Source of the DNA: a virus
Lineage: Duplodnaviria; Heunggongvirae; Uroviricota; Caudoviricetes
IMG/VR virus record: IMGVR_UViG_2645727510_000017
Direction: 5' to 3' (one strand)
Length of the DNA stretch: 18,155 nucleotides
In this document: positions 1-3,000 of the stretch, one piece after another
Layout of the letters: each line of letters opens with the position of its first letter
Numbering within the stretch: the first letter of the stretch is position 1
Made by a program: the position numbers

Positions 1-3000
1 CTGTCGGCTGCCGTTCTGGCGCTGATTGCCGCAGGTGCGCCTGCGCCTGAAATCCTCGACCAGTTTCTGGATGAAAAGGAAGGTAACCACACCACGGCAT
101 ACCGTGATGGCGCGGGTATCTGGACCATCTGTCGCGGTGCCACCCGGGTGGATGGTAAGCCTGTCCTCCCGGGCATGAAGTTGTCGAAGGAAAAATGCGA
201 CCAGGTTAACGCCATTGAACGTGATAAGGCGCTGGCATGGGTGGAGAAAAACATCAAAGTGCCACTGACCGAACCCCAGAAAGCGGGGATCGCGTCATTC
301 TGTCCGTACAACATTGGTCCCGGTAAGTGTTTCCCGTCGACGTTTTACAGACGAATTAATGCAGGTGATCGCAGGGGAGCGTGTGAGGCGATTCGCTGGT
401 GGATTAAGGACGGTGGCAGAGACTGCCGTATTCGTTCAAACAACTGCTACGGTCAGGTATCCCGTCGTGACCAGGAGAGCGCGCTGGCGTGCTGGGGTAT
501 CGACAGATAAGCAGAATATTTTGCTGAAAAATAAGGCATGGCCACGCGGGCGGATAACACGAAATCCTGCGAACTGGCGAAACGTAAGTGAATAAAAGTA
601 AAAACCCCGTTTGTTGGCAGCAAGCGGGGTTTTGTTTTTATGGCAGTAAGCTATGGGAGGCTGCCTTGATTGATTTTAGCAAACTGATTAGGGAGTTGCG
701 ACTCATGATTAGTCAATTACCAAACTGGAAATTTTTGCTGGTCTGGAGCATCCCTTTTTTATGGGTAGTATCCCAGTTAATTGTGGCAATTAAGGGGTAG
801 CTATGTCAGACAAACTCATAACGCCGGCAAAGGTCCTCTGTGTGATTGTCGGTATTTCATTTTCACTAATGCTGGTTGCTCTTTTTCTGTCCCTCGCCTG
901 GGTGATGTTGTCTTCGTCGGGGCTGCTGGGGTGACAGTGACTGATGACATCAGCAGAGCGCTGGCTTTTGCTATTAAGTGGGTGGCTGTTGGTATTGCTG
1001 TGTCTCCGATGCTATATGGGCTGGCAAAACTGGTCATTGCGCTGAAATCGTGAACTTTAAAAAGATGAGTGCTGAACTTATTCGGGCAATGGCATTTGCC
1101 ATTCGTATTGTGGCCATTGCTGTTCTGGTCTGGGCAATCCGTTGGTGGTGAAATGAACCGCGTTCTGTGTGTGGTCATCATTGCTCTGCTGGTGGCCTGT
1201 GGTGCGCTTAGTCTGGGGCTGAATCATTACCGCGATAACGCCATCACTTACAAAGCGCAGCGCGATAAAAAAGCCAGTGAACTGAAGCTGGCGAACGCAA
1301 CCATTACTGATATGCAGGTGCGCCAGCGCGATGTTGCTGCGCTCGATGCAAAATACTCGAGGGAATTAGCCGATGCGAGAGCTGAAAATGAAACTCTGCG
1401 TGCTGATGTTGCCGCTGGTCGTAAGCGCCTGCGGATCAACGCCACCTGCTCCGGTACCGTGCGTGAAGCCACCGGCACCTCCGGCGTGGATAATGCAACC
1501 GGCCCCCGACTGGCAGACACCGCTGAACGGGATTATTTCATCCTCAGAGAACGGTTGATGACAATGCAGAAGCAGCTGGAAGGGGCGCAGGAATATATCC
1601 GTACTCAGTGCCTGAAATAAGTTTTGTTGATGCGCCGTATCGTCGCTGTATTCCCTCATTAACAGAGACCGCAGCCCGACAGGGAGACTCCTCTGCGCGA
1701 GTGTGCGGGGATAATCAAAAACGATACACACCGGGGTTTACCGCGTTAACGGAGCGCGGCGTTGTCCCCTCATAGTCGCCAGTCCGGTGCGATGGTGGAA
1801 GAAACAGGACGATGTGTTACCTCGCAAGCCCTGTTATGTCATGTGTCTGATTTGTGATTTAAGTCGGATAATTGTCGTTGCCATTAAGCAGAGGATTGAT
1901 GACCGACAGGGCGGCATTGTTAGAATAAGACTTATTTTTATCTGTGCGGGGAATGAAAATGAAAAGAAATCTTCCGTTAATTATTTTGTTGTCTTCTCTG
2001 GTTATGGGCTGTACGCAACATAAAACAGATATGCCCCGACAGTTGGTTAAGGCATTACCACAATATCCGGCCTATGCAGCGGCAAATTATATAAAGGGAC
2101 GGGTTGATGTGAGGTTTGATATTGGTGCTGATGGTACTGTCACCCGAATTGAGTTTATTCGTTCAGAGCCGCACCATCTGTTTGATGAGCAGGTTGTAAA
2201 GGCGATGGCAAAATGGCGATTTGAGAAGGACAGGCCGTGTAAAGGCGTGAAGAAAACGTTTATCTTTAGTCCTTCTGCACCCTGATTATTTCATCAGAAA
2301 TTAATTATCACTCTGTTGTTATTCTGTACATCCCGGCAGGGTAAGTCTTGTTCCGTCGGATATGAAGATGAAATATTGTGGGAGGACAGTGGGTACCTGC
2401 TCCTGTAACCGAACGTTCATTTCTCGTTATTTGTCATGCTGGCCGGGCGCAGATGCGTTGCATCTGTTGCCAGCCTTCTCCTGCAGGCTTCAATAACCCA
2501 CGCTGAAAAGTTACCGGAACCTTTATGTTCAAGGGCGATATTGATCTGTTCAATCATGTGATTGGGGAAACGGATGTTGCGGGTTGTTGTTCTGCGGGGC
2601 CGGTTTTTCGATGACATTTTCTTTCCTCTGGTGACAAGCTATATGGAGAGGATTTTACATGGCTGTGCTTCGTACGTTACCGGGCAGAATCAAAACACTG
2701 AATACCCGACGGGTGAATATTCTGAAGGGTGAACAGCGTCGTGTCAGTGGCAGTGCACGTGTTTCCCTCAAGCGTCATATCTGGCTCAGGGACGCCGGGC
2801 AGTGCCGTCTCTGTGGTCGTGTGGTTGACCTCTGTGACAGTGAACTCGATCACCGAATTGCACTTCAGTTCGGTGGTGGTAATGAGGAGACGAATCTCTG
2901 GACGCTCTGTACCGAATGCCATCGACAAAAGTCTGCTCGTGAAGCGGCGAGTGATATGCCGGACCCGACGCTGCCGGAGGTGTCCGGAGGTAGTGGCAGA

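Follow-up and report, generated by a model that had tools for sequence, protein, structure and literature searches.

We analysed 18,155 nucleotides of DNA from a virus of the class Caudoviricetes (IMG/VR record IMGVR_UViG_2645727510_000017). This whole stretch, called the window below, is the late region of a lambdoid prophage of Escherichia coli, and a small gene between its lysis and packaging genes encodes a lipoprotein with a TonB C-terminal (TonB_C) domain. Our analysis showed that the protein is a member of the TonB_C domain family and not a TonB energy transducer. We suggest that it may be a natural dominant-negative form of TonB that would dampen TonB-energised entry, and we give this reading a probability of about 0.4.

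The domain had been proposed from the DNA alone in an original prediction, and our profile searches back the assignment. The protein matched Pfam PF03544 (TonB_C) with E = 9.1e-15 (55.3 bits against a cut-off of 24.6) and TIGR01352 with 55.1 bits against a cut-off of 27.1, matches much too strong to be due to chance. When the PDB was searched with phmmer, the E-value was 1.5e-15 for TonB of E. coli (1u07) and 1e-15 for that of Salmonella (8rd6). Residues 28-106 of the query paired with residues 153-231 of TonB in 1u07 without gaps, and the identity over the TonB domain was 38% to the E. coli protein and 40.5% to the Salmonella protein. The top matches in the PDB and in NCBIfam were enterobacterial TonB and not distant TonB paralogues. 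NF008084, the best TonB equivalog, reached 73.6 bits where 315 are required, and the match covered no more than the last ~85 positions of its profile. Eight residues of TonB (P161, Y163, P164, F180, G186, F202, W213 and F230) are identical in the phage protein, and Y215 is replaced by Phe.

Structure prediction, which had been proposed as a check, led to the same result. The AlphaFold2 model had a predicted local distance difference test score of 83 overall and >93 across the domain (residues 31-100). In Foldseek it superposed on crystal structures of TonB with a root-mean-square deviation (rmsd) of 1.1-1.3 Å; the values were 1.2 Å for 1u07, 1.1 Å for 2gsk_B and 1.2 Å for 2grx_C, all with a probability of 1.00. 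Over the solved TonB C-terminal domains as a whole, which consist of three beta-strands and two helices, the rmsd was 1.1-1.4 Å. The entries 2gsk and 2grx are TonB bound to BtuB and to FhuA, respectively.

A protein of 111 residues had been predicted at 1953-2285. The open reading frame (ORF) on the plus strand is real and intact in the window, but the count had included the stop: the frame holds 110 codons plus stop. A second in-frame ATG at 1959 would give a precursor of 108 residues (1959-2285 on the plus strand, stop included). The Shine-Dalgarno sequence GGGGA (1948-1952) lies 6 nt ahead of ATG 1959 and 0 nt ahead of ATG 1953. The NCBI Prokaryotic Genome Annotation Pipeline (PGAP) places the start of the identical DNA in E. 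coli 97-3250 at 1959 (WP_000828072.1, "TonB family protein"), and one natural allele carries M1I at the 1953 codon. For these reasons ATG 1959 is more likely the true start, and 108 residues the likelier length.

The precursor begins with MKRNLPLIILLSSLVMG followed by CTQH, and it was correctly called a lipoprotein: under a PROSITE-type lipobox rule it has the sequence IILLSSLVMGC with Cys18 within the first 35 residues, the basic residues K2 and R3, and Thr, not Asp, at position +2. The lipobox and a non-Asp residue at +2 are kept in 14 of 15 family members. Residues 1-18 form the lipoprotein signal peptide and are followed by 8 linker residues and then by the TonB domain. By the established +2 sorting rule for lipoproteins, Thr at this position predicts that the protein is anchored in the outer membrane.

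The order of genes in this part of the window is endolysin, Rz/Rz1, TonB_C lipoprotein, ylcI/ynfO, HNH, small (TerS) and large (TerL) terminase subunits, and HK97-type head genes. The gene therefore sits, as predicted, in the gap between the lysis genes (Rz/Rz1) and the packaging genes. A blastn alignment with the collinear phage BP-4795 ends at 1809 and restarts at 2483, and BP-4795 has 266 unrelated bp there instead. The guanine plus cytosine (GC) content of this cassette is 0.44, compared with 0.52 in the left flank and 0.56 in the right flank. Most Shiga toxin (Stx) phages share only the first 110 nt of positions 1700-2420. Identical DNA is found in O26:H11 and other strains, and DNA that is 98% identical is found in phage JLK-2012, Lys8385Vzw and four Stx1a-converting phages.

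The cassette also contains a promoter-like site, whose extended -10 element TGTTAGAAT lies 32 nt ahead of the start codon. The block ATTGTyAGAATAAGAC is kept between this allele (type 1) and its sister allele (type 2, described below) despite the saturation of synonymous sites in the genes, which supports a promoter shared by both types. The relatives in Salmonella and Klebsiella have the pattern TGnTAnnAT at the corresponding position. A search for an intrinsic terminator after the gene found none, and the downstream fold was no better than that of shuffled sequence. It is well supported that the gene behaves as a moron, as had been supposed: its GC content is low, it is present in one and absent from another of two collinear phages, it has a conserved extended -10 of its own, and its sister allele is transcribed in a lysogen.

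A different function is implied by the label of PHROG 1267, "Rz-like spanin", according to which the gene would encode a lysis protein. The match to this family is strong (E = 1.3e-42), and in every phage examined the gene lies directly after the spanin genes on the strand of the late operon. However, the gene is 338 nt from Rz, has its own promoter-like site and encodes a folded TonB domain that is not proline-rich; in addition, the lysogen transcribes the sister allele, and some relatives lie on chromosomes outside phages. We rejected the spanin assignment: separate Rz/Rz1 genes were present in every phage checked, that is, in the window, in phage 21 (where i- and o-spanin are annotated with references) and in the Salmonella prophage. 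A role in lysis is thus very improbable, and the label looks like an annotation error that arose from the position and lipoprotein character of the gene. The Salmonella prophage has its own Rz1 at positions 6546-6800 of locus L125, and the moron there likewise has a GC content of 0.44, against 0.51-0.52 in its flanks.

All 80 of the 80 IMG/VR copies of the type 1 allele are intact, and the polymorphisms among them, R54K and C96R, are only conservative. C96R occurs in 36 of the 80 viral copies (codon 2238-2240, in the numbering of the 110-residue frame). It affects the sole cysteine of the mature domain, so no disulfide is required. The type 2 allele is 71% identical and is carried by phage 21, by the prophage Perceval of the adherent-invasive E. 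coli (AIEC) strain LF82, by ev017 and by CP-933N. Between the two types we obtained a nonsynonymous divergence (dN) of 0.19 and a synonymous divergence (dS) of 1.5, which is saturated, with dN/dS of 0.12. The gene is under purifying selection and is not decaying.

These values bear on the names that the gene already carries in the databases, namely "TonB family protein", "TonB C-terminal domain protein", "TonB fragment" and "partial tonB-like membrane protein ... CP-933N". The last two would suit a functionless leftover of host tonB that was picked up by a phage. The gene begins with a start codon of its own and encodes a signal peptide and a lipobox, features missing from tonB, and the protein is only 38% identical to E. 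coli TonB. The fragment or pseudogene assignment was rejected on the 80 intact copies, the dN/dS of 0.12 and an Enterobacterales-wide family of the same architecture, and we consider such an origin highly unlikely. "TonB fragment" is therefore as misleading a label as "Rz-like spanin".

Several type 2 variants from metagenome or read assemblies (P0012, P0013, P0017-P0019 and P0021) switch frame at differing points just before the last beta-strand, and they share one out-of-frame tail. They could be assembly errors, or genuine truncations in which the protein loses the strand with which it is expected to bind the Ton box.

We defined the family by an exhaustive profile search and cluster look-ups. 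Among 5426 complete E. coli genomes, 414 contained type 1 and 1221 contained type 2; LF82 and the uropathogenic E. coli (UPEC) strain 536 are among the carriers. About 30% of complete E. coli genomes thus carry the gene, among them enterohaemorrhagic E. coli (EHEC) O26 and O157, UPEC 536 and AIEC LF82, and many Salmonella carry it too. Proteins of 107-133 residues with the same architecture occur across the Enterobacterales, in Salmonella enterica, Klebsiella, Raoultella, Pseudescherichia, Gibbsiella, Erwinia/Pantoea and Rahnella. A partial copy that is 68% identical is present on a 418-bp contig of Modestobacter excelsi (L011), which is almost certainly contaminating enterobacterial or phage DNA.

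The prophage copies always lie directly after the lysis genes and before the packaging genes, although the modules differ. E. coli type 1 is followed by HNH/TerS, and E. coli type 2 has bor upstream and Nu1 downstream. The next module is HNH/Terminase_4 in the Salmonella prophage and a GpA-type terminase in the Rahnella prophage. In Klebsiella phage ST13-OXA48phi12.4 other genes come next, with HNH and TerS ~3 kb downstream, and in the Pantoea prophage unassigned ORFs come next and then the portal gene. Prophages of five genera have thus captured the gene independently into the slot between lysis and packaging, which suggests that the phage benefits from it.

In the version from the Pantoea prophage an ordinary signal peptide replaces the lipobox, and this protein would thus be a naturally soluble periplasmic TonB C-terminal domain. 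It follows a bacteriocin-immunity pair: in the Pantoea agglomerans prophage (L132, 2278-5324) a 769-residue Pyocin_S/colicin-DNase bacteriocin and its immunity gene lie between Rz and the TonB_C protein. We did not count this as a link to TonB, because the N-terminus of the bacteriocin is glycine-rich like those of Tol-dependent E colicins and has no obvious Ton box.

Chromosomal copies are found in Klebsiella, Raoultella, Gibbsiella and Erwinia. The Klebsiella and Raoultella copies follow a Spy/CpxP-like protein and a lipoprotein resembling glycine-zipper and 17-kDa-antigen proteins, near the lac operon (L008, 6933-7856; L004, 6939-7857), and together these genes form a small conserved cluster of envelope proteins. 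Such neighbours, which are small proteins of the envelope-stress type, would fit a structural or surface lipoprotein unrelated to TonB transport, for example one that binds peptidoglycan or confers serum resistance like Bor; the moron slot is also shared with bor in phage 21 and Perceval. However, a tether of ~8 residues is too short to reach peptidoglycan, judging from the geometry of the envelope, the domain is closest to enterobacterial TonB itself, and the binding site for the iron regulator Fur described below indicates iron and not envelope integrity. We therefore regard an envelope role as improbable.

Evidence on transcription is available for the type 2 allele. In the LF82 lysogen, the gene of Perceval (PERCE_65/LF82_160) has been noted before as an expressed moron (PMC9928086). 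Its expression, as log2 of fragments per kilobase per million plus 5 (FPKM+5), was 5.0-6.6 in all five conditions, and that of the adjoining terminase gene was 2.3-4.3 (PMC9928086, Table 1 and S4 table). This transcription was 8-fold over the local background in all five conditions. Host tonB swung between 4.2 and 7.2 in a pattern unlike that of PERCE_65, although the two mRNAs were at about the same level in lysogeny broth (PMC9928086). By these values the sister allele is a constitutively transcribed moron.

We investigated Fur sites with the 7-1-7 motif TGATAATnATTATCA (15 positions) and the 19-mer GATAATGATAATCATTATC. The chromosomal copies of Klebsiella and Raoultella have a perfect or 14/15 match to the 7-1-7 motif, 24-30 nt ahead of the start and right after the -10 element. 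In the Raoultella/Klebsiella locus L004 this box (7975-7989) is the sole site with <=1 mismatch in 16 kb, and no such site appeared in 200 shuffles. The Salmonella prophage copy has 15/15 at -29 (L125, ~6972-6986) and the Erwinia chromosome 14/15. Lower scores were obtained for the Gibbsiella chromosome (12/15, with 15/19 on the 19-mer), the Pantoea prophage (12/15 at -89) and the Klebsiella phage (11/15). E. coli types 1 and 2 and the Rahnella prophage reached 10/15, which is the chance level. The loci of the relatives with a Fur box are L004, L125, L006-L010, L130 and L129; for L010 the offset of -83 is counted from the start of the tblastn match (query residue 20).

With up to 3 mismatches allowed, the part of the window upstream of the gene contained no Fur site. 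Fur control of this copy was rejected, since only matches of 10/15 and 12-13/19 were obtained. These matches, at 1924-1942, have the same offset as the box of 14-15/15 in Salmonella prophages and in the Klebsiella/Raoultella chromosome, and they may be a degenerate remnant of it. From these sites the family looks ancestrally Fur-repressed, that is, induced by iron starvation, and the E. coli phage alleles appear to have lost Fur control, which fits the expression pattern in LF82. The Fur box ties the family to TonB and iron independently of domain homology, and it is silent on whether the protein hinders or helps uptake.

The proposed mechanism starts from the domain, which is a close copy of the end of TonB that binds the Ton box of TonB-dependent outer-membrane transporters. 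The protein has no membrane anchor and no proline-rich spacer, so that it could not couple to the ExbB-ExbD motor; no exbBD genes were found near the gene in the annotation of the locus. A tether of ~8 residues from the lipid anchor would keep the domain close to the outer membrane on its periplasmic side, which is where the Ton boxes emerge. It could then occupy, through beta-strand pairing, the Ton boxes of transporters or those of incoming group B colicins, or alternatively pair with the C-terminal domain of TonB itself. The outcome would be less irreversible adsorption of T1/phi80-type phages and less import of colicins and microcins, at the cost of reduced siderophore and B12 uptake. Probably expressed in the lysogen from its own promoter, and presumably also by late read-through in lytic growth, the protein would give the lysogen a broad entry shield. 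A passage in PMC9841981 reports that exported periplasmic TonB fragments without the motor inhibit iron import via TonB-dependent transporters. Competition for the periplasmic face of FhuA takes place between TonB and Llp, an exclusion lipoprotein (bioRxiv 10.64898/2026.03.26.714494). The outer-membrane location, the Ton-box binding and the inhibitory outcome are plausible inferences.

Several observations weigh against a dominant-negative action. The positions close to the Ton box are the most variable of the domain: Q160 of TonB corresponds to Leu in type 1 and to Tyr in type 2 but is retained as Gln in the copy from Klebsiella, R158 and Q162 are not conserved, and Tyr takes the place of R166 throughout the family. 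Types 1 and 2 differ at 9 of 19 such positions and at 10 of 60 elsewhere (p = 0.012), and the family-wide entropy is 1.83 and 1.35, respectively. This variability could reflect either a diversifying binding surface or relaxed constraint on that surface. Transporters greatly outnumber TonB, and the transcript of the sister allele is only at about the level of tonB, so some Ton boxes might escape titration. Nothing found in the carrier phages indicates that they use a TonB-dependent receptor themselves. Among the defence models of PADLOC-DB 2.0 there was no match beyond a chance-level E of 0.038, and a full-text literature search found no functional study of this gene, only the table of LF82 morons and general papers on TonB and Llp. 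Finally, most relatives outside E. coli have a near-perfect Fur box and would be switched on just as the need for iron uptake is greatest, which would be hard to reconcile with a pure inhibitor. However, co-induction with the receptors would also suit a stoichiometric shield. A rationale of self-exclusion was considered separately and found no support: phage 21 has a lambda-like J, and the annotations of phage 21 and JLK-2012 include no cor gene.

The Fur box might instead be explained if the protein were an accessory factor that aids the acquisition of iron and, like sitABCD, a fitness moron. By capping idle receptors it could leave scarce TonB to the loaded ones, or it could dock periplasmic binding proteins or TonB near the transporters; either would improve uptake in iron starvation. 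A Fur box at ~-30, present on the chromosomes of Klebsiella, Raoultella, Erwinia and Gibbsiella as well as in the Salmonella prophage, would agree with such a helper, and so would the chromosomal copies being stable, non-phage genes with conserved neighbours. Two type 2 carriers, phage 21 (L123, 10968-13001) and Perceval (LF82_184-187), also hold the Fe/Mn ATP-binding cassette importer sitABCD as a moron, which is an inner-membrane iron route without need of a TonB-dependent receptor. This co-carriage may be a coincidence of the relatedness of the two phages, or it may compensate for lowered TonB-dependent uptake. Against a helper, there is no known mechanism by which a motor-less TonB domain raises transport, and a free periplasmic TonB domain inhibits it according to the passage in PMC9841981. 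The E. coli phage alleles also have no Fur box, and type 2 expression does not track host tonB. We thus think a helper function unlikely.

A further explanation keeps the inhibition but moves its target to TonB itself. The third beta-strand would pair with TonB's C-terminal domain, as TonB fragments do in crystal dimers, and the cell's few hundred copies of TonB would be caught non-productively at the outer membrane. The residues of the crystal dimer of TonB and the aromatic cluster are retained in the phage protein, and as TonB is the limiting component, the modest expression of type 2 would be enough. Howard et al. are said to have proposed mixed dimers in 2001 as one explanation of their results. 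The functional relevance of TonB C-terminal dimerisation in vivo is disputed, however, and the predicted phenotype is the same as that of a Ton-box decoy. Sequestration of TonB appears rather improbable to us.

Returning to the Ton-box decoy, a broader hypothesis can be formulated. Enterobacterales and their temperate phages would share a natural "anti-TonB" family of outer-membrane-anchored or periplasmic copies of the receptor-binding domain of TonB, ancestrally induced through Fur in iron starvation together with the receptors. Such proteins would protect in a generic way against whatever exploits TonB-dependent import, namely T1/phi80-like phages, group B colicins and siderophore-microcins. 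The family would have been captured by prophages at least five times and, in E. coli, rewired to constitutive expression, so that ~30% of sequenced E. coli would carry an exclusion and tolerance factor not recognised before. We regard this scenario as possible but doubtful.

If the decoy reading is true, exclusion would work by mimicking the energy transducer of the host and not by altering a single receptor, and one small protein would be potentially broad against phages, colicins and microcins. It would then be a new variant among phage-encoded exclusion lipoproteins, with a bearing on the host range of phage therapy, on bacteriocin competition in the gut, on the uptake of siderophore-antibiotics ("Trojan horse") and on TonB as a drug target. 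If the protein were an uptake helper, it would be an unrecognised component of the intensively studied TonB system.

The coordinates of the gene and its neighbours are summarized in Table 1. Elsewhere in the lysis region, the ~560 bp between endolysin and Rz (588-1151) contain only short hydrophobic ORFs, which PGAP annotates as hypothetical proteins of 28-51 residues. BP-4795 has an antirepressor gene at this position, and it looks like another variable slot in the lysis cassette.

Table 1. Features of the lysis-to-packaging region of the window, with positions counted from its first nucleotide.
Feature	Position	Strand	Basis or remark
Rz i-spanin	1153..1620	+	PGAP "lysis protein"
Rz1 o-spanin ORF, proline-rich lipoprotein, embedded in Rz	1373..1558	+	ORF inspection
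Moron cassette, 673 bp	1810..2482	.	blastn against BP-4795, GC drop
Promoter-like site: -35 ATGACC 1899-1904; extended -10 TGTTAGAAT 1918-1926	1899..1926	+	consensus scan
Possible degenerate Fur-box remnant	1924..1942	.	12-13/19 of GATAATGATAATCATTATC, 10/15 of 7-1-7; chance level
Lipoprotein precursor coding sequence, 108 aa	1959..2285	+	alternative in-frame ATG at 1953
Signal peptide and lipobox (MKRNLPLIILLSSLVMG followed by C)	1959..2012	+	lipobox rule test; lipidated Cys codon 2010-2012 (predicted)
TonB C-terminal domain	2034..2270	+	~ E. coli TonB 153-231; xPxYP motif and third beta-strand VKKTFIFS included
YlcI/YnfO-family gene, convergent; 3' end 2417-2482 inside cassette	2417..2617	-	PGAP annotation, BP-4795 alignment
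HNH endonuclease	2659..3024		
TerS	3316..3879		
TerL	3876..5537		

Compared with known systems, the phage protein is closest to the C-terminal domain of TonB (1u07, 1xx3, 8rd6, 2gsk, 2grx). The two are homologous, align without gaps at 38-41% identity and have the same fold, and both have the xPxYP motif, the aromatic cluster and the third beta-strand, with which TonB pairs with the Ton box. The N-terminal transmembrane anchor of TonB, its proline-rich spacer and its link to ExbB-ExbD are all absent from the phage protein, which begins instead with a lipoprotein signal peptide and is predicted to be anchored in the opposite membrane. The last 8 residues of TonB are also missing, R166 is replaced by Tyr and Q160 by Leu.

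The artificial exported TonB fragments of Howard, Herrmann, Stratilo and Braun (2001, J Bacteriol 183:5885) place the same motor-less C-terminal domain in the periplasm. Those fragments were the host's own TonB, soluble and over-expressed, whereas the phage protein is natural, diverged, predicted to be lipid-anchored and equipped with a promoter-like site of its own. The lipoprotein Bor (lambda)/Iss provides a parallel in position: Bor is likewise encoded by a moron that fills the gap from Rz to the packaging genes, it is expressed in lysogens, and its gene adjoins the present one in phage 21 and Perceval. However, there is no kinship in sequence or fold, bor lies on the opposite strand, and Bor is tied to serum resistance and not to TonB.

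The original prediction had compared the protein with Cor and Llp. The likeness holds for the proposed function and for the location, but not for the fold: all PDB matches in Foldseek at E <= 0.001 were TonB C-terminal domains or homologues (FusB, TonB2), with TolA among the weaker ones, and the FhuA:Llp structure 8A60 was absent from them. Llp of T5 and Cor of phi80, N15, HK022 and mEp167 are likewise small phage lipoproteins of the inner leaflet of the outer membrane, and they act on the periplasmic face of a TonB-dependent transporter (see also PMC9586334). Their target is specifically FhuA, whose outer loops they close allosterically, whereas a TonB-domain decoy would be generic for all Ton boxes. 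Phages that do not need TonB, such as T5, would escape such a decoy.

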